Source of the DNA: Chiloscyllium plagiosum
Taxonomy: Eukaryota
Assembly: GCF_004010195.1 (NCBI RefSeq)
Contig: NC_057738.1
Location: forward strand, 26,203,063-26,267,062
Direction of reading: 5' to 3'
Length of the DNA: 64,000 bases
Shown here: one piece after another, positions 2,746-56,898 of the stretch
How the letters are laid out: each line of letters opens with the position of its first letter
Numbering within the stretch: position 1 is the stretch's first letter
Program-made: the position numbers and the translations under genes
The notes under the pieces: generated by a model
The model's database searches: none
The model's input: the letters and a program-made list of their open reading frames with translations, nothing else
What the model was told of the DNA's origin: nothing

Positions 2746-3039
2746 CCACGTTATCAGACCAGTTCCCAAGGCGGAAGCCTGTTTGAAGTGTTTTAATGCA
2801 GCTTTTTGCTGTCTTCAATTCATTTAATTCAATAACTAACAGTGCCCTAATGAAGTGATATAATCATCTTTTAAAGGAAATATAGCTAAACATAACCAAA
2901 CACAAAGGATTCAGGCGGTTTGCTCTACTTAACTGAAAAATTAAACCTGCTTCAAGAGAAATTCCTCTCAGAGTTAAACATAATAAGCAGAAGAATTATG
3001 TATTTTACAAATGCAAAGTGAAATCAGTTGTTTCTTCAA

Positions 3040-4110
3040 CAAGTAGTACAGATTGAAGCTTGGTTGTCTGGCAGGAAGCAGAGAGTGGGGATAAAAAGGT
3101 GCCCAGGATGGCAGCCAGAGACAAGTGGTGTTCCACAAGGCTCAGTGTTGGGCCCACAACATTTCACTTTATACATTAACGATCTAAATGAAGGAATTGA
3201 GGGCATTCTGGCTAAGTTTGCAGACGATACAAAGTTATGTAAAGGTAGTGTTCACGAAATAGGGAGATTGCAGAAGGATTTGGATAGGTTAGGAGAGTGG
3301 GCAAAGAAGTGGTGGATGGAGTACAATGCGGGAAATTGTGAGGTCATACACTTTGGTAGGAAGAATAGAAGCATGGATTATTTTCTAAATGTCCAGAAAT
3401 TCAGAAGTCTGAAGTACAAAGAGGCAGGGCAGTCCTACAGAGGATTCTTTCAAGGTAAACTTGTACGTTGAATCAGTAGTTAGGAAGGCAAATGCAACGA
3501 TGGCATATATTTTGAGAGAACTTGAATTTAAAAGCAGGGATGTACTTCTGAGGCTCAAATGTCTCTGGTCAGGCCACATTTAGAGCATTGTGTGCAGTTT
3601 TGGACCCATCTCTCATGAAGGATGTATTGGATCTGGAGTGTATTCGGAGGAGGTTCATGAAAATGGTCCCAGGAATGAAAAGCTTAATGTATGAGGAATT
3701 TTGGAGGACTCTGGTTTAATACCCAGTGGAGTTTAAAAGGATGAGGTGTTCTAATTGAAACATATTGAATATTGATTGGCCTCAACAGAGTAGATGTTGG
3801 GAAAATGTTGCCATTGGTAGGTGAGACCATGACACAAGGGTCTGAGAGTAAAGGGAAGACCTTTTAGAATGGAGATAAAGAGAAACTTCTTCAGCCAGAG
3901 AGTGGTGAAGTATGGAATTCATTGCCACAGAAGGCTGTGGAGGCCATTGACTATATTTAAGATTAAGATAGATAGGCTCTTGAGTGCCAAGGGATCAAGG
4001 GTTATGGGGATAAAGTGGGAGAATAGGGTTGGGAAACTTATCAACCATGATTTAATGGCGAAGCAGACTTGATGGACTGAATGGCCTGATTTCTCCTCCT
4101 ATGTCTTATG
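3040..4110 (+). mobile_element. 5'-truncated CR1 LINE (RT pseudogene)
   Basis: WLSGRKQRV, GVPQGSVLGP, KFADDTK, RNFFSQRVV motifs; frameshifts; CCTATGTCTTATG tail. Confidence 0.93.
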
Positions 4111-15200: not shown

Positions 15201-17110
15201 AAGTTAGACAGCATCTGTGGAGAGACAGAAAGAGTTAATGTTTCAGTTCAATCACCTTACATCGAAATTAATTAGAAAGTCCTACAGTGTGATAATTTAC
15301 TGGTGTCAATAAAGACAGGTATTTAAATCTATTTCCATCCTCTTTACCCATCAAATCTCTGTATCTTTTTACTCCCATTCTACAAAGCATTTTTGCATTA
15401 CTTTGTACATTGAAGATGCTATATAGCTGCAAGTTTTTATTTGTGGTTAGGAACATTCAGTAGGAAAGAAACAAATGGTGTACTTTTTAAAATCTGCAGA
15501 GATTTTGTCAAGGCACATGTACCACAAGAGAAACTAGGCATTCACCTTGAGTTGCAAAATTTGGGATAATGGAGAATGTCAAAAAAGGTGGACTATTCAT
15601 GAAACAACATATGTAACTGAACAGGCTTCAGCAGTGGAAATGAAAGATTTGAATCTACTGATACATATTCATATATACTTGACCTAGATATCCATGTATG
15701 CATGTTACAATTGCTATTAACATTCATGTTATACTCCTAATTCTGTTTATTTGCCAGTTTTATACATTTGTGCACTCACATGATTATTCTAAAATCACAA
15801 ACCAGTGATAGTATCAAGGAATGTGCTTTAAACTCGCCTGGTTTATCTCACTATTTATTGATTGTGTAAATTGTGCATAATATCACTTAGCAACTGCTAC
15901 AGGAACACACAGGAATGCACCATGTGAGCCATTTTACACATCATACTCTGCATTTCTTCCAGTACAGACACTGCAAAAAGTATAGAACAATGAGAAATTA
16001 GAATCAGTATCATAACATTCCTGTATTTCAGGTATGATGTAATTATGAGTGCAGAGTTTAAAAAAATCATTATCAGGCAATGCCTATCTCACAAGCTGTA
16101 AATTTTCACCTACTTTACAGAATTCACAAATACATTTCAAGGTCTATAATCAGGAGATCCTGGAGCTGCTCATCTCACACCTTGGACTATAAACCATGCA
16201 CATCATTATCCTTTATGCAATGATGTCCTTGTTGGGTGACAGGGGCATGGGGTGGAGGAAACAATTCTTATTTACCCTCCCACTATTACAATCTCTGACA
16301 GTATGGGTGCCAAAGAGCATGTTCGTCTGAATCAGGTCCATGTACAATGTAAAAGTTCTAAATAGAAGCATCCATTGCCCTACTTGCCAGAGGCCTCCGT
16401 GTTCCTCCGGTTTGAACAACAACGCCTAAATATAGGTGCTGTGTACAGTGACGGCTGAATGATCACATTATTGAGAAGCTGCTTTGTTTCTGACATTGTC
16501 CACACAGGGTCATGAACTTGGCCTCAGTGGATTTTCAGGCAGAGGAGCTGTTGTCTACTCTGTGTCTGTTGTGCTACAAGTGTCCACTAACATTGATAAG
16601 GAACCCATGTGTCTCGATGTCCTAATATGCAATTTTCAGCCAAAGGTGCCCTTATGATGCAGTAAAATTGCAGGAGCCTCGTGGTCTATCATCTTTCATG
16701 CATTGTCGTGCAGCTGAGAGAGGGGCAGTGAGACTACATTCTATGTGGAGGTAAAGATCAGAATGCCAACTCATGAGGCCCTGAATAAATGTAACACACT
16801 ACCTTCTTAATTGGGACCAATGAGGATCATAAGGTATCTTCTCAACATGAGGTTTCCATGTCTTTCAGGTCAGGAGTTTCATTGCAGTATAGTACAGACG
16901 GAGGCTGTTGATTTAACCTTTGGCACGATGAGTCAGGTGAGAGCCATGGGAGAAGATGCTGCATACACTTGTGGATGTGATAAACCATGAGTCTTGCTAG
17001 AGGTGCTTACTATATAACTATGACTCTTGGTGGATGGGACTCCATGGGAATCGCGCCTGAATAGTTATCGCTGAGGGAGACTTGACGTACTTTTGTCAGC
17101 TGCAGTGAAT

Positions 17111-17184
17111 AGTCATGCCTTCTCGAGGTTCCCACTGGTAACAGCATTAGCTCCGTGCTCGGCTATCGCTGGCTAATTGTGACT
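17111..17184 (+). ncRNA. HDV-like self-cleaving ribozyme core of the R2 5' UTR (decayed)
   Basis: P2 AGTCAT 17111-16 with GTGACT 17179-84; P3 GCC/GGT around L3 TTCTCGA; P1' TCCCACT 17130-36; GG; P4 CAGC..TAGCT/GGCTA..GCTG; J4/2 GCTAA with catalytic C at 17173. Confidence 0.8.
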
Positions 17185-17269
17185 GAGGAAAGTTCCAAGA
17201 TGGCTGTTTGATCTGTGTGGATTGCGATACTACTTAGTGAATACCACAAACAAAAAAAAACAACATAAC

Positions 17270-19835
17270 ATGGAGCCAGTGAAAGACTCTCATCAGTCCA
17301 GTTGGAATGCTTCCTCGAAGAAAAACCTCCCCATTGGTTCTTTGATGGTAGCGATCTGTGACAGGTGCCAATGCCACACAAAGAGGGAATTCATCTCCAC
17401 ACGGACGGAGGAGATGACGACTAGACCCGACATACACAGACCAATAGTCTACGCAAATCAAGGCCCAGTCAGACTTGGAAAACCAAGACCAGACATAGAA
17501 GATGAGAACCCTGTTGTGGAAGATGATGGTGACCCACCCCACAGCACAAACAATCACAACACAAATCTTCCAAACAGATGGGAGAAAGAAGCACACAAGC
17601 AACAGGGAACCAAAACATCTGAACTGGTGAACTACATCAAAGCAGTCATCATTGAGCCCTTGTTTTATAGAACAGCACTCAAGGAAGTTTTGATATACCA
17701 TCCCATGAATGGTCTGTTTTGTATGGCCTGCAACTCTGTTCTTCCTACTGTGGGGACCTTCAGAGAGCACCTGCCCAAGACACACCATGTCAAGACCTTT
17801 CGCACTAAATGCTCCAAATGTGATAAGAGTGGGGAATACCATGCTATAATGTGATTACGCGAAATGTACACTCCAAGACTACCAGGAGCCTTCACGTGCT
17901 GACATTCACACCGAAGATGGGCCTTGGCCAACATGACAGACACGAGCATGCCCAACACTGAAAGGAGAAACGTTTGGAGGTCCTGAAGAACACACCCAAG
18001 CCAGGTAGGAAGGCTGACAAATGGATGGAAGAAGAAAACAAACTTCTCTGTGAGTTGTAAAAGCAGTATGCAGCCTGTACTTCCATCAACTCGAAGATAG
18101 CCAGTATCCGTATAATCAAGACACCTAAACAAATCTTCAATAAGTGAAGGATGCTGCAAAATATTGATGTGGGATCTGAAGCTCCAGTGCTCAAACCTCC
18201 AGCGGTTACCCTTGCAGAGGGTGCTGAACACAAATCCTTAGATGTCCACCAATGAAAAAGAACTATCAGTCTAGTAGCCTGCACGCCAAAACATCGGGAT
18301 ATAGATGACCAGCTTACGCAGGCAGAAGAACGTATAAAGAAGAAGGGTGACCTCGATGTTAGAGCCCTGGGCCTGGGGCTAATAGAAAGTATCATGGACC
18401 TCCTTATCAATGGTGAAGACCTCTCTTCGAGGACAGAAGATGGATGTAAAGAAGACCAGAAGAGGAAGAAGACAGCAGAGGAAAGGAGAGAAAGGAGGAA
18501 AAGAAAAGAATTTCTGAAGAACTCCAGTGCCGGAAGATGCTCAGCAGTGAAGAAGACCAAGTTCCAGACCATTCAACTTCTTTACAATCAAACCAGGAGA
18601 CAGCTGGTTAGACAGATCGTGGGAGCACCAGCCCTCATGGAATGTCCACTCTCCCAGCAAGAGTTGGAAGACAATTTCATCATGAAGCTTTCAATCAAGA
18701 ACAGCAAGATAATATCAATATATTCAAACCATATACTGGCAGTAAGGATAATGGATTGCCGATGTGATCCATCGAGGAGGAGGAAGTCGACATGGCCATC
18801 AGAGGAATCGACCCCGGAGGGCAGCAGGACCAGATGGCATGAAGATGGATAACATCCAGAAGATCCATTATGGAAACGCCACAAGAATACCAAGAGTCTT
18901 CACCTTCGGATGAGGACAAGCACTATCCCAGAGCCACTGGTGAGGAGTTGGACAATCTCGATCCCGAAGACTGAAGACCCGAAGAAGCCAGATGACATAG
19001 ACAGTTGGAGGCCTATTTCAATCAGGCCCATGTTGCTTCACCCTTTCCCTAAAACCATGGAGAAGCGACTCAGTGAGAGAGTCCAACGTAACCCTGGACA
19101 AAAAGGGTTCTTGGCCGTGACACCAGGATGCAATGCGATCACTGCAGTCCTGGCCAATGTCATCAGAGGCACCAAGAGAAACAGGAAGGAACTTGCAATT
19201 ATCTAATGAAAATCCTGCAATGAGCTTGCTTGCCAAAGGGATTCATTCAGCTTAATCGAGGTTTTTTTCCCCAGCAATGCAACGAAAATCAAAGGTGATT
19301 GCTGCGGAACCATCCCGATAAACATCCTGAGAGGAGTCAAGTAGAGTGACTCCCTATTGCCAGTTGTGTTCAACATTGTATTGGATCCATTGATATACAC
19401 TCTCGAGGATGCCAGCAGAGGAGTGTCCATGCAACCAGACAGAAGGAAGATCAACTGGTCCACCCTGGTCTTTGCTGATGACATCACCTTGTTGAGTGAT
19501 TCCCACACGGGAATGGTTAAAAAAACCCTCAAAATCGTCCAAGCATTTTGTGAGAATAAATGTCTAACTATTAACATCTCGAAGACAAAATGATTCCATT
19601 TTACTTATTAAGTGAAGATCTTTCTTTCTAATCAAGAACGCAATTGGGTCCTAAAAGGAGGCATCATCGACTATTGAAAAATACCTGGGACCCCGTATCG
19701 ATCCATGGGTGGGTGTGTCAGAGTTGGGAGAGAAACTGAAGATGTGGATTTCCAAGGTTCAGAATACTGCTCTCCACCCAATGCAGAAACTGGAACTCAT
19801 GAAGATGCATATGATTCTGAGATTGTACTATCTTT
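17270..19835 (+). pseudogene. R2 ORF pseudogene (zinc fingers, Myb, reverse transcriptase, thumb; endonuclease lost)
   Basis: CMAC..FREHLPKTH; CSKC..YHAIM[CH]YAKC; FTPKMGLGQHDRHEH; Myb WMEEENKLL..KTPKQI (~18022-18150); AGPDG; IPK..WRPISI; QKGF; FNIVLDPL; FADD at 19471-19482; KYLG; PMQKLELMK. Many stops and frameshifts, and the DxxKAFD motif is deleted. Confidence 0.9.
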
Positions 19836-19839
19836 TAAA

Positions 19840-20145
19840 TTAGATTAGATTAGATTAGATTAGATTCCCTACAGTGTGGAAACAGGGCCTTTGGCCCAAC
19901 AAGTCAACACTGACCCTCCAAAGAGTAACACACATAGACCCATTTCCCTCTAACTAATGCACCTAACACTATGGGCAATTTAGCATGGCCAATTCGCCTG
20001 ACCTGCACATCTTTGGAGTGTGGGAGGGAACCGGAGCACCCGAAGGAAACCCATGCAGACACGAGGAGAATGTGCAAACTCCACACAGACAGCCGCCCGA
20101 GGCTGGAATCAAACCAGGGACCCTGGTGCTAACCACTGAGCCACT
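19840..20145 (-). mobile_element. HE1/V-SINE
   Basis: V-domain (reverse complement TGTGTGGAGTTTGCACATTCTCC..TGGGTTTCC), GGCCATGCTAAATTGCCC and (TTAGA)n tail. Confidence 0.92.
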
Positions 20146-22654: not shown

Positions 22655-23065
22655 TCCATCCCTAATTGCCCTTGAACTGGGTGTCTTGCCTTACTATTTC
22701 AAAGGGCAGTTAAGAGTCAACCACAATTGCAATTGTATCTAGGCCAAGTGGGATATGGATGGCAGGTTTCCATCCCGAGAGCACTCAGTGGGCCGGAAAG
22801 TTTGTCACAACAATTGATCATAGGTGCATGGTGTGAAACCAACTTTCAATTCCACGTTTTATTCATTGAATATTTTTAAATATTCATTCGTGGGATATGA
22901 ACATCCCTGGCTGGGCCAGAATTTATTGCTAATCCCTAGTTGCCCTTGAGAAGGTGAGCTGTTTTCTTGAAACTGGAATTTAAATTTCATCAGCAGATGT
23001 GGTGGGATTTGAACTCATGTCCCTAAAGCATTAGGCTTCTGGCAGCATATTATATAGCAGCATGA
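22655..23065 (-). mobile_element. tRNA-SINE/L2-tail fragments
   Basis: CATCCCTAATTGCCCTTG, GGCAGTTAAGAGTCAACCACA, ATTCATTCGTGGGATATG, GGGATTTGAACTC. Confidence 0.65.
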
Positions 23066-30974: not shown

Positions 30975-33240
30975 GATTCTTTTGGGGGAACGTGGTCATC
31001 ACTGGCAGGGCCAGCATCTATTCCCTGTCACTAGTTGTCCTTGAGATGGTAGTGGTGACCGGCCTCCTTGAAGTGCTGTGCGCCACTTATAGAACATAGA
31101 ACATAGAACATAGAAGAATATAGCGCAGTACAGGCCCTTTGGCCCTCGATGTTGCGCCGATCCAAGCCCACCTAACCTATACTAACCCACTATCCTCCAT
31201 ATACCTATCCAATGCCCGCTTAAATGCCCATAAAGAGGGAGAGTCCACCACTGCTACTGGCAGGGCATTCCATGAACTTACGACTCGCTGAGTGAAGAAC
31301 CTACCCCTAACTTCAGTCCTATATCTACCCCCCCTTAATTTAAAGCTATGCCCCCTTGTAATACCCGACTCCATACGCGGGAAAAGGTTCACACTGTCAA
31401 CCCTATCTAACCCCCTAATCATCTTGTACACCTCAATCAAGTCACCCCTAAACCTTCTTTTCTATAATGAAAACAGCCCCAAGTGTCTCAGTCTTTCCTC
31501 ATACGATCTTCCTTCCATACCAGGCAACATCCTGGTAAACCTCCTCTGCACCCGTTCCAGTGCCTCCACATCCTTCCTATAGTATGGCGACCAAAACTGC
31601 ACACAATATTCCAGATGCGGCCGCACCAGAGTCTTATACAACTGCATCATGACCTCAGGACTCCGGAACTCAATTCCTCTACCAATAAAAGCCAGTACGC
31701 CATATGCCTTCCTCACCGCACTATTTACCTGGGTGGCAACTTTCAGAGATCTGTGTACATGGACACCAAGATCCCTCTGCTCATCCACACTACCAAGTAT
31801 CCGACCATTAGCCCAGTACCCCATCTTTTTGTTATTCTTCCCAAAGTAAATGACCTCACATTTAGCTACATTGAATTCCATTTGCCACCTTTCTGCCCAG
31901 CTCTGCAGCTTCTCTATATCCTGCTGTAACCTGCCACATGCTTCCTCACTGTCAACAACTCCTCCGACTTTCGTATCATCCGCAAACTTGCTCACCCAAC
32001 CTTCTAACCCCTCTTCCAGGTCATTTATAAAAATGACAAACAGCAATGGTCCCAAAACAGATCCTTGCGGAACACCGCTAGTGACGGCACTCCATGAAGA
32101 AACTTTGCCATCAACTACTACCCTCTGTCTTCTTCCATCCAGCCAATTCCTAATCCAAACCTCCAACTCACCCTCAATGCCATATCTCCGTATTTTCTGC
32201 ACTTGTTGTGGGTTAACTCCCAATGCCATTAGGGAGGCAATTTCAGGATTTTGACCCAGCGACAGTGAAGGAATGCAATATATTTCCAAGTCAGAATGGT
32301 AAGTGGCTTGGAGGGCAACTTGCAGGTGCTGGTCTTCCCACGTATCTGCTGCCTTGTCCTTCTCATAAGAAGTAGTTGTGAATTTGGAAGATGCTGCCTG
32401 AAGATCTTGGGTGAATTTCTGCAGTGCATCTTGTATATAGTGCACACTGCTGTAACTGAGTGTTGGTGATGGAAGGAGTGGTGCTAATCAAATGGGCTGT
32501 TTTGTCCTGAATGTTGTCAAGCTGAACATTGTGCAATCATCGGTGAACATCCCCACTTCTGACCTTATGATGGATGGTGTCAAGCTACTGTGTTTTGATG
32601 GAGTTGCACCCATGCAGACAAATGGGGAACACTCTATCTCATTCCTGTCTGTGCATTGTAGATGGTGGGTCAGGCTTTGGGAAGTCAGGGGTGAATTACT
32701 TGCCGCAGTATTCCTAGCTTCTGACCTGCTCTTGTAGTCACTCTTTTATATGGTGAGTCCGCTGGATTTTGGTAACTCCTAGGGGATTCAGTGATTGCAA
32801 CACCATTGTATATCAAGGAATAGTGTTTAGATTGTCTCTTACTAGTGATGGTCATTGCCTGGCATTTGTGAGGTGTGAATGTTACTTACCACTTGTTGGC
32901 CCAAGCTTGGGTATTGTCCAGATCTTGTTGCATTTGAACATGGACTGCTTCAGTATCTGAGGAGTCAAAATTAGTGCTGAATATTGTGCAATCATCAGCA
33001 AACATCCCCAATTATCAACTTATGATGGAGGCAAGGTCATTGATGAAGAAGCAGCTGAAGATGGTTAGGTCTAGGACACTACCTTGAGGAACTCCTGCAG
33101 AGATGTCCTATAGTTGAGATGACTAGCCTCCAACAATCATGACCATCTTCCTATATGTCAAGTATGACTTCACACACAGGAGAGTTTGCCTCCTGATCCC
33201 AGTTTTGTTAGGGCACATTGATAACACGTCTCATTGAATG
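30975..33240 (-). mobile_element. L2-type LINE split by a CR1 insertion
   Basis: L2 tail at 30975-31088; body resumes at ~32199 with reverse-complement GVPQGSVL (ACACTACCTTGAGGAACTCC) and FADDC (GCAATCATCAGCAAACAT). Confidence 0.8.
31089..32198 (-). mobile_element. Young 5'-truncated CR1 LINE
   Basis: Nearly intact RT (GVPQGSVLGP, KFADDTK, LVRPHLEYCVQFW); (AGAACAT)n tail; CpG-rich. Confidence 0.95.
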
Positions 33241-52929: not shown

Positions 52930-55900
52930 TTTTCTGGCTGTAACAGCTGCTCCTTTTTTGAAGTATTTTAGGTGCTGGAGGTGATTTCCTCGAATTCCAG
53001 GAGCAGCAATTACTGTTTCATATGCTGTTGCATTGTCTTGGAACTTTGGAAAAAAAAGTCAAAACAACATCAGTTTTGAAAGGGAGAAGAACAGACAAAG
53101 GAAGAGTAACAAAAAGATGGGGTACTGGGCTAATGGTCGGATACTTGGTAGTGTGGATGATCAGAGGGATCTTGGTGTCCATGTACACAGATCTTTAAAA
53201 GTTGCCACCCAGGTAAATAGTGCGGTGAAGTAGGCATATGGCGTACTGGCTTTTATTGGTAGAGGAATTGAGTTCCGGAGTCATGAGGTGATGTTGCAGT
53301 TGTATAAGACTCTGGTGCGGCCGCATCTGGAGTATTGTGTGCAGTTTTGGTCGCCATACTATAGGAAGGATGTGGAGGCACTGGAACGGGTGCAGAGGAG
53401 GTTTACCAGGATGTTGCCTGGTATGGTAGAAAGATCTTATGAGGAAAGGCTGAGGCACTTGGGGTTGTTTTCATTGGAGAAAGGAAGGTTTAGGGGTGAC
53501 TTGATAGAGGTGTACAAGATGATTAGGGGTTTAGATAGGGTCGACAGTGAGAATCTTTTTCCACGTATGGAGTCAGCTATTACAAGGGGGCATAGCTTTA
53601 AATTAAGGAGGGGTAGGTATAGGCCAAATGTTAGGGGTAGGTTCTTTACTCAGCGAGTCGTAAGTTCATGGAATGCCCTGTCAGTAGCAGTGGTGGACTC
53701 TCCCTCATTATGGGCATTTAAGCGGGCATTGGATAGGCATATGGAGGATAGTGGGCTAGTGTAGGTTAGGTGGGCTTGGATCGGCGCAACATCGAGGGCC
53801 GAAGGGCCTGTACTGCGCTGTATTCTTCTATGTTCTATGTAAGCACATGGTGAGGTCAGTGCAGGAGAGAGAGGGAGAGAACCTGCACAGTTACTTCTTT
53901 TGATGTTTTGAATTCATGTATCACTGGACATTGGAGTCCGTCTGGGAAAATTAACAAACAGTGAAATTCACAACTAATCTTGGAGGAAACTGTTTGGGCG
54001 AAGTTCACAGCACAGAACCAGATAAGAGAAGCATTGTTTTAAGTGTGTCCAACAGAAAGGCTGCAGTAGTGAGTAGAGTGGGTTCTTTCTTAATTATATG
54101 TTTTTGGAGATATGTCTCTTGATTAAACTTAAAATATAAGTCATAACTATTAATTTAACCTGGGGCGGTGTTTTGTATAGGAATAAGATGGCGTTATTTT
54201 CTGGGTCTGTAAATTGTGAAGGAGCGAAAATGGCCTTTAGTACAGTGATATATACTTCTTGTCAGATGTGGGAGTTTAAAGAGAGTTTAAGGGTTTCTGC
54301 GGATTATATCTGCCATAAATGCTGTTGGATAACAATTTTATCAGATCAAATGGATCAGTTGGAGAGACAGATAGAAACAATGAAGAGTTTGTAACAGCAA
54401 CAGTATGTGATAGATGGCAGTTATAGGAAGGGGGGAAAGTCTCAGATACAGTCACATATATGGGTTAACTCCAAGAAAGGTAAGAGATGTAGGCAGTTAG
54501 TGCAGGACGCTTTTGTGGATATACCCATTTCAAACAGGTATGCTGTTTTCGAAAATGTAGGAGGTGATGGATTCTCAGGGGAACGTAGCAAAAACAGCCA
54601 GGTTTCTGGTATTGAGACTGGCTCTAATGCAATGTGGGGTACATCGGCTTCCAAGAGATCAATTGTGTTAGGGGATTCTGTAGTCAGAGGTACAGACAGA
54701 CGTTGCTGTGGCCAGCAGAGAAAAAGCAAAATGATGTGTTGCTGCCCTGGTGCCAGAATCGAGGATGTCTCAGAGAGGGTTCTCACGGGGAATAGGGGCC
54801 AGCAAGAGGTCATTGTCCACATTGGAACCAATGATATAGGAAGGGTAAAGGTTGAGATTCTGAGGGAAATTACAGAGAATTAGGCAGAAATTTAAAAAGG
54901 AGGTCCTCGAGAGTAGTAATATCTGGATTACTCCCAGTGCTACGAGCTAGTGAGGGCAGGAATAGGAGGATAGAGCAGATGAATGCATGGCTGAGGAGCT
55001 GATGTATGGGAGAAGGATTCACATTTTTGGATCATTGGAATCTCTTTTAGGATAGAAGTGACCTGTACAAGAAAGACAGATTGCACCTAAATTGGAAAGG
55101 GACTAATATACTGGCAGGGAAATTTGCGAGAACTGCTCGGGAGGATTTAAACTAGTAAGGTGGTGGGGGGGATCTCAGGGAGATGGTGAGGAAAGAGATC
55201 AATCTGAGACTGGTACAGTTGAGAATAGAAGAGAGTCAAACAGTCAGGGCAAGCAGGGACAAGGTAGGACTAATAAATTAAACTGCATTTATTTCAATGC
55301 AAGGGGCCTAACAGGGAAGGCAGATGAACTCGGGGCATGGTTAGGAACATAGGACTGGGACATCATAGCAATTACAGAAATATGGCTCAGGGATAGGCAG
55401 GACTGGCAGCTTAATGTTCCAGGATATAAATGTTACAGGAAGGATAGAAAGGGAGTCAATAGAGGTGGGGGAATGGCATTTTTGATGAGGGATAGCATTA
55501 CAGCTGTGCTGAGGGAGGATATTCCCGGAAATACATCCAGGGAAGTTATTTGGGTGGAACTGAGAAATAAGAAAGGGCTGATCACCTTATTGGGATTTTA
55601 TCATACACACCCTAATAGTCAGAGGGAAATTGAGAAACAAACTTGTAAGGAGATCTCAGCTATCTGTAAGAATAATAGGGTAGTTATGGTAGGGGATTTT
55701 AACTTTCCAAACATTGACTGGGACTGCCATAGTGTTAAAGGTTTAGATGGAGAGGAATTTGTTAAGTGTGTACAAGACAATTTTCTGAATCAGTATCTGG
55801 ATGTACCTACTAGAGAAGGTGCAAAACTTGGCCTACTCTTAGGAAATAAGGCAAGGCAGGTGACTGAGGTGTCAGTGGAGGAGCACTTTGGGGCCAGCGA

Positions 55901-56898
55901 CCGTAATTCTATTAGTTTTAAAATTGTGATGGAAAAGAATAGACCAGATCTAAAAGTTGATGTTCTAAATTGGAGAAGCGGTAGATGTGATCTATATGGA
56001 CTTCAGTAAGGCGTTCAACAAAGTTCCCCATGGGAGACTGATTAGCAAGGTTAGATCTCATGGAATACAGGGAGAACTAGCCATTTGGATACAGAACTGG
56101 CTCAAAGGTAGAAGACAGAGGGTAGTGGTAAGGGTTGTTTTTCAGACTGGAGGCCTGTGACTAGTGGAGTGCCACAAGGATCGGTGCTGGGTCCTTTACT
56201 TGTTGTCATTTACATATATGATTTGGATGCGAGTATTAGAGGTACAATTAGTAAGTTTGCAGATGACACCAAAATTGGAGGTGTAGTGGACAGCAAAGAG
56301 GACAACAGGATCTGGACCAGATAGGCCAATGAGCGGAGAAGTGGCAGATGGAGTTTAATTCAGATAAATGTGAGGTGTTGCATTTTGGGAAAGCAAATCT
56401 TAGCAGGACCTATACACTTAATGGTAAGGTCCTGGGGAGTGTTGCTGAACAAAGAGACTTTGGAGTGCAGGTTCATGGCTCCTTGAAAGTGGAGTCGCAG
56501 GTAGGAGGCTGACAGGTGACCTTATGGAGGTTTACAAAATTATGAGGGGCATGGATAGGATAAATAGACAAAGTCTTTTTCCTGGGGTGGGGGAGTCCAC
56601 AACTAGAGGGCATAGGTTTAGGGTGAGAGAGGAAAGATATAAAAGAGACCTAAGGGGCAACCTTTTCACACAGAGGGTGGTACGGGTATGGAATGAGCTG
56701 CCAGAGGAAATGGTGGAAGTGGTACAACTGCAACATTTAAGAGGCATTTGGATGGGTATATGAGTAGGAAGGGTTTGGAGGGATATCGGCTGGGTGCTGG
56801 CTGGTGGGACTAGATTGGGATGGGATATCTGGTCGGCATAGACGAGTTGGACCGAAGGGTCTGTTTCCATGCTGCACATCTCTAGGACTCTATGACTC
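52930..56898 (+). mobile_element. Long CR1 LINE with 5' UTR, ORF1 (zinc finger plus SGNH esterase), APE and RT; two internal deletions
   Basis: ORF1 from ~54230 (SCQMWE..CHKC; LGDSVVRG; PGARIEDV; HIGTNDIG; LHLN); APE FNARGL, GDFNFPNIDW, SDRN; jump at ~55977 to MDFSKAF; KFADDTK; jump at ~56505; (CTCTATGA)n tail. Confidence 0.92.
53103..53840 (+). mobile_element. Young CR1 nested in the 5' UTR of the long CR1
   Basis: Nearly identical to the reverse complement of 31091-31840 (KMGYWANGRILGSVD..MEDSGLV); TATGTTCTATG tail. Confidence 0.95.

Follow-up and report, generated by a model that had tools for sequence, protein, structure and literature searches.

The window, a stretch of 64,000 nucleotides (G000:C29), carries a broken R2 copy that extends from position 17015 to about 19840. 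Its first segment, 17015-17184, is very probably the remains of an HDV-like ribozyme, now decayed and likely inactive, with which an old R2 copy outside rDNA begins (Table 1). The flanks are not rDNA, and the copy has no 28S flank of the kind that marks a canonical insertion. The open reading frame (ORF), which starts (ATG 17270) 86 nt downstream of the ribozyme, retains N-terminal zinc fingers, Myb and an R2-type reverse transcriptase (RT), though broken by stops and frameshifts. Its N-terminal part gave a weak Pfam zf-C2H2 match below the cut-off, and this protein piece had no PDB match. The best PDB matches of the RT fragment (E 4e-12 to 1e-11) are three vertebrate-type R2 proteins, R2Tg (PDB 9dou), 9nl3 and 9nl2, of the three-zinc-finger R2s (lineage A), followed at E 0.002 by a protein named only 'reverse transcriptase-like'. 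The same three are the best structure matches of the near-intact relative L110, with the N-terminal fingers and Myb aligned (E 6e-187). Similarity of the window copy to near-intact relatives reaches 19837, with frameshifts and 11 stops against L110 and L111. R2 homology stops there, the query relatives themselves ending before the end of the endonuclease. Unlike R2Tg and the 9nl3 and 9nl2 proteins, the window copy has a broken ORF, and neither an endonuclease domain nor a 3' UTR was found downstream of 19837; the missing match and the missing 3' UTR suggest that the endonuclease was lost.

Table 1. Positions of the R2 copy, its ribozyme elements and the adjoining repeat within the window
Feature	Positions	Strand	Remarks
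Retained 28S-derived leader	17015..17027	+	-20..-8 of the R2 site, 13/13 identical
J1/2 hairpin 1	17015..17067	+	TAACTAT 17015-21 with ATAGTTA 17061-67
Inner arm of J1/2 hairpin 1	17034-37 / 17042-45	+	ATGG / CCAT; contains GATGGGA (17033-39)
J1/2 hairpin 2	17068..17108	+	8/11 pairs change on both sides
P2 5' strand, P3, L3, P3', P1', GG of P1.1	17111..17138	+	P2 AGTCAT 17111-16; P3 GCC 17117-19 with GGT 17127-29; L3 TTCTCGA 17120-26, with C>U at 17121 and conserved G17125; P1' TCCCACT 17130-36, with G>A at 17134; GG 17137-38
P4 hairpin	17142..17171	+	From folding; 17142-45/17168-71 plus 17148-52/17161-65
J4/2, then P2'	17172..17184	+	Putative catalytic C17173 in GCTAA, C in 8/11 old sisters; P2' GTGACT 17179-84
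Broken R2 ORF, N-terminal part	17270..18150	+	Zinc-finger motifs and Myb-like WxEEE, read by eye; frameshift near 17850
Broken R2 reverse transcriptase and thumb	18853..19837	+	PF00078, E 3e-8
Abundant interspersed repeat, end of R2 homology	19843..20130	.	Presumably SINE-like

The interspersed repeat that closes the R2 homology is presumably SINE-like. Behind it, 20146-20733 matches L051 about 4.6 kb behind the R2 start of that locus (71-79%) and also L054 in reverse, and is taken as a separate common repeat. Other LINE fragments lie at 3022-3468 (+), 31462-32484 (-) and 55353-56006 (+), with RT domains (PF00078) twice and one endonuclease/exonuclease/phosphatase domain. A domain scan of 17 other ORFs in the window gave no host-gene domain and one RT match. 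No target-site duplication was found for the R2 copy, one 8-mer at 22690 being taken as chance, and AGGTGC-TTACTATA upstream of 17015 could not be shown to be a leader remnant or stutter.

HDV-like features and decay

Profile searches with models from two other R2 lineages, the window copy being left out, gave one match each in the 64-kb window, at 17015-17207 (E 4e-8) and 17029-17145 (E 1e-8). Together with the location at the 5' end of the R2 ORF, these matches bear out the HDV-like R2 ribozyme proposed in an earlier note on this DNA. An Rfam search at gathering and E-value thresholds matched no ribozyme family, and folding-energy z-scores were unremarkable (0.0 for J1/2, -0.55 for the core, 0.0 to -1.6 overall), so that the case rests on homology. 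The order and pairing of P2, P3, L3, P1', P1.1, P4 and J4/2 are HDV-like; the short motifs that the earlier note named lie where it put them, and its P4 hairpin folds. Between GCTAA and P2' there are two further bases (TT) that it left out; the spacing is shared by L051 and L069, the closest sisters.

The bases expected at the catalytic positions, C17173 and A17175 in J4/2 and T17120 and G17125 in L3, are present, and by analogy with HDV-like ribozymes C17173 may be the catalytic residue. In this individual C17173, G17125, the GG and P2-P4 have all survived, better than in most old sisters, although the copy was chosen because it could be recognised. Sisters have a P1 helix of 6-7 bp that opens with the cleavage-site G; the window copy, which is without the 5' strand, does not. 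The window copy is a remnant of an HDV-like ribozyme, not an intact one.

Two substitutions mark the core. At the base opposite 28S C-26, G stands in 6/11 old and 21/29 younger (lineage B) sisters, in keeping with the proposal that a CpG change turned an original UCCCGCU into the present P1'. A stands there in 4/11 and 5/29, and because this same change recurs in 9 of the 40 sisters together, A17134 reads as ordinary CpG decay. The CpG observed/expected ratio is 0.41 in the window copy, 0.70 in a young copy and 0.88 in an rDNA copy, and the window copy sits on a long terminal branch (0.61) of the RT tree. The L3 C>U change is private to it, C being kept in 8/11 old, 29/29 lineage B and 27/30 lineage C copies; it makes P1.1 a U-G plus a C-G pair, where 22 of the 26 rows aligned at that pair have C-G plus C-G. 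CPEB3 has U at that place in L3 and a weaker P1.1 (bioRxiv 10.1101/2022.09.22.508989). Since a U-G pair remains and CPEB3 has U there, the change likely slows the ribozyme rather than kills it. The probable inactivity assumed in the earlier note gains support, the ribozyme being likely inactive at present, but its attribution to the L3 change was not established.

The covariation check across other copies that the note had called for covered 26 copies, drawn from all three groups (the window's group and lineages B and C). In the J1/2 hairpins and P1.1, 83% of cells are paired and both sides change in 12/21 pairs. None of 500 shuffles attained the values of three of the five measures, and 20 and 81 attained those of the other two; slid controls, at 28-45% paired, all fall below the real structure. 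These values are support and not a probability, because the structure was drawn from the same, related sequences. The TAACTAT/ATAGTTA stem, which the note had proposed, covaries across lineages; in hairpin 1 as a whole, 89% of cells are paired and 4/8 pairs change on both sides. In the alignment used (A2), the lineages are not in register at the P1 5' strand and P3; P1 was therefore counted by script, and only J1/2 and P1.1 by covariation.

The 28S boundary in sister copies

Searched with the N-terminal protein, the 3.56-Gb genome gave 128 matches, which brought in all sisters but the single one that the ribozyme region had retrieved as a DNA query. From these, 100 stretches were fetched, mostly the best-ranked of the 128, and 86 loci besides the window were analysed. 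At least 97 bases of 28S lie directly upstream in only 7 of the 86, a figure that is no measure of target specificity because rDNA is poorly assembled and chromosome-size contigs were favoured. The old group to which the window copy belongs ('A') is loosely defined, L051 lacking a usable RT row and L114 being placed by the tree with lineage B; its copies are 65-72% alike. Lineages B and C also have copies at the canonical 28S site (L074, in a 28S remnant, for B; L100, L128 and L129 for C) and so differ from R2NS families, which are defined by having none there and by dispersed copies that stay close to their consensus. The dispersed copies L110 (3343-6930, -) and L111 have open frames of 1196 and 1130 codons and, judged by sequence, are recent off-target insertions. 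A candidate observation of 28S pieces in 3' UTRs was rejected: the L011 reference lay behind an R2 3' end, and the pieces vanish with L006 as the 28S reference.

Most R2 ribozymes are reported to take the 5' strand of P1 from 28S, cutting most often at -28 (Eickbush, Burke and Eickbush 2013, PMC3774820). The earlier note had assigned this role to 28S here, and the genome's own 28S (L006) has GGCGGGA at -28..-22; the arrangement is not new, being the published rule for most R2s. We placed leaders by an anchor at -22..-13 with at least 8/10 matches, which accepted 32 of the 38 dispersed copies of the old group and lineage B and dropped six. In the 32, identity to 28S is 0.53-0.81 at -28..-23, positions that played no part in anchoring, as against 0.12-0.38 at -45..-29, a step that puts the start of the family's elements at -28. 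All six bases -28..-23 are carried by eight lineage B copies, and the leaders of young copies are identical to 28S. The window copy, 8 nt short of this boundary, matches none of the six: it starts at -20, and since -28..-21 is missing, the P1 5' strand has been lost. No GGCGGGA occurs downstream of 16900, in agreement with its absence in the earlier note. Short 5' losses of this kind are common, since 6 of the 32 (L078, L059, L060, L067, L071 and L084) match at most two of the six bases. On the evidence of the sister copies and published R2 assays, the parent ribozyme likely cut at 28S -28 with GGCGGGA as the 5' strand of P1.

In lineage B, a short form (L050, L054, L056, L070, L072, L074, L085, L098, L113, L115 and L121) lacks the first J1/2 hairpin, and the 28S leader appears to pair instead with the 3' strand of the second hairpin.

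Rival readings and proposed history

The earlier note had suggested that the window copy may have been rewired to an rDNA-independent P1, with GATGGGA as the 5' strand and cleavage before G17033, which we regard as very improbable. GATGGGA makes 6/7 pairs with P1', with G-U at position 1 and a duplex energy of -6.6 kcal/mol as against -6.4 for the 28S strand, but a partner at least as good arises in 56% of 5000 shuffles of J1/2 (22% if a G start and at most one wobble are required), and the flank contains a second such partner at 16936. In a pseudoknot-free fold of 17015-17184, 17035-39 is paired with P1' at a probability of 0.77-0.86, which drops to 0.10-0.15 once 65 nt of flank is added. Two changes of the window copy, A17134 and A17039, improve the pairing; A17039 is private (T in the ten sisters with that arm, register set by eye), but A17134 recurs in sisters without GATGGGA, and GATGG is an inherited hairpin arm that pairs with CCCAT in sisters such as L087. 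The A-C mismatch at position 2 adjoins the cleavage site, and a single P1 mismatch went with undetectable cleavage in the horseshoe crab R2 (PMC3774820). Nor do orthologues point to constraint, among the differences listed. The insertion is present with its flanks in related organisms B and C; of the 41 differences in one organism B sample, at least 11 fall within the 170-nt ribozyme, where 6.3 are expected, so that there is no deficit. That sample carries G17125>A, a change of the conserved L3 G, and the other B sample has none among the differences listed; change of the same G abolished cleavage in a wasp R2 (PMC3774820).

That the ribozyme itself is a chance arrangement of short helices is hardly credible: the folding z-scores and the missing Rfam match would suit it, but the single matches from independent lineage profiles, the location at an R2 ORF's 5' end and the covariation, which none of 500 shuffles reached in three of five measures and no slid control reached at all, argue against it. 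Less remote, though still unlikely, is a parent that belonged to a dispersed R2 family without site specificity, with the 28S leader as its own 5' end, and did not reside in rDNA. Such a family would likewise start at -28, R2 families without target specificity have been described (PMC5035012), and no old-group copy was seen in rDNA among the loci examined. Turnover is reported to purge old rDNA copies (PMC13580325), however, and the canonical 28S copies of lineages B and C, the 28S identity of young-copy leaders and the dispersed 3' junctions, 18/32 of which run on into at least TAG of the 28S target, all speak for residence in rDNA. This alternative alters the parent only and leaves ribozyme identity and decay as they are.

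With an rDNA-resident parent, the preferred reading, the window copy would have arisen as follows. The parent likely sat in 28S rDNA and was co-transcribed with rRNA; its RNA would have cut itself at -28, GGCGGGA forming the 5' strand of P1, and the cleaved RNA was likely reverse-transcribed into an off-target site. The last eight bases would have gone uncopied or been lost on joining, as in several sisters. Later drift would account for the CpG decay in P1', the C>U in L3, the stops and frameshifts in the ORF and the loss of the 3' end.

Lineage C, 3' junctions and known systems

The off-target R2 fossils of this genome probably record a switch of the ribozyme cleavage site: the window group and lineage B would cut at -28, and lineage C at its own GGGGGGA, which would derive from a duplicate of the 28S leader and is accompanied by compensating changes in P1 and J1/2. 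Lineage C is a clade (support 1.0, two unlabelled rows inside) in the unrooted RT tree, for which 68 of the 75 rows with an RT match were kept. Its P1' has C where the other two groups have G in 30/30 copies, the P1 pair changing from C-G to G-C, and the first J1/2 stem has changed in step (A-U to G-C, U-A to C-G; one pair is G-C in 13 and A-U in 10). We parsed the 5' ends of 25 of the 30 aligned copies. The heptamer preceding TGTGACT pairs fully with P1' in 8 of them and with no more than one mismatch in 15 altogether; the other 10 have a shorter 5' end, and a mismatch to 28S at position 3 is common to all 25. The dispersed copies (L075, L076, L081-83, L088-93, L099-103, L105, L106, L110, L118, L119, L123, L125 and L127) have no 28S leader. 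Among those with 28S upstream, a G-run follows the leader in L077, L100 and L146 and is partly or wholly lost in L012, L128 and L129; Eickbush linked variable junctions to cleavage at the element's own end (PMC3774820). Lineage C thus likely cleaves at its own 5' end and likely records the cleavage-site shift modelled by Eickbush, which proceeds by duplication and for which R2 B and C of the sea squirt are the proposed examples (PMC3774820, Figure 8 legend and text); both this cleavage and the direction of the switch are inferred.

The 5' end of lineage C, GGGGGGA-TGTGACTAC, resembles a duplicated 28S leader and goes with a P1' of TCCCCC(T/C) and a long P4. The lineage B copies L064, L053 and L067 carry a tandem duplicate of the 28S leader. 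L025, also of lineage B, begins at the inner leader duplicate (TAACTCTGAC variant) and would represent an intermediate step of the duplication model. The window copy appears to witness the older, 28S-dependent state only, the rewired state appearing in a different R2 lineage at other loci. If the switch is real, lineage C frees itself without rRNA sequence, so that dispersed copies could be processed from host transcripts.

The window motif resembles the R2 ribozymes of earwig, silkmoth, flour beetle A and zebra finch (PMC3774820) in a P1 5' strand from 28S -28..-22 with a complementary P1', and shares with -28-cleaving R2 ribozymes the order P2-P3-L3-P1'-GG-P4-J4/2, a structured J1/2 and the location at the R2 5' end. 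Unlike those described there, it lies outside rDNA, lacks -28..-21 and has decayed in P1' and L3. Copies outside 28S are known as extra-rDNA R2s in Drosophila, a dead end there (Stage and Eickbush 2009, PMC2718515), and as R2NS families (Kojima 2016, PMC5035012). In contrast to these reports, dozens are present here in one genome, of many ages and with the boundary kept, beside on-target copies of the same lineages. Lineage C is like sea squirt R2 B and C (PMC3774820) in its 28S-leader-like 5' end, the joint change of P1 and P1' and variable rDNA junctions; it differs in being from a vertebrate, in that its cleavage is a prediction from sequence and in occupying other loci than the window copy's. 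R2s of sharks and rays have been reported (PMC5035012; PMC13188248), and shark R2s, extra-rDNA copies and non-specific families are described across PMC5035012, PMC12247875, PMC13188248, PMC11331408, PMC2718515 and PMC13580325. Our literature search found no study of shark R2 ribozymes or of dispersed shark R2 copies; Repbase reports, subscription journals and supplements (Figure S2 of PMC3774820; tables of PMC13188248) may list families and 5' ends.

As a decayed example of a published mechanism, the window motif carries little weight by itself, and the set of copies to which it belongs is more useful. Off-target insertions keep the 5' end of their template RNA and therefore show, in vivo and with no assay needed, where cleavage takes place; with 28S-dependent and likely rRNA-independent states in one genome, the 2013 duplication model can be tested. 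The 3' junctions bear on the strictness of R2 targeting, which a 2026 review called open and relevant to R2-based gene insertion (PMC13580325). In the 32 dispersed copies whose 3' end is recognisable, the sequence beyond it matches the 28S target over TAG to TAGCCAA in 18 and over TA or more in 27, one extra base being allowed; either the target or rRNA on the template could have supplied these bases.

At L134 (1970-2200), L137 (600-900) and L126 (846-960, oriented), the end of an R2 3' UTR directly abuts 28S pieces or an R2 5' end, junctions that may be head-to-tail tandems or template jumps. The 5' flanks of L061, L065, L070, L071, L050 and L080 contain the same repeat sequence (…CAAGAAGGGGAGTAGAGACAA…), possibly a preferred off-target site.
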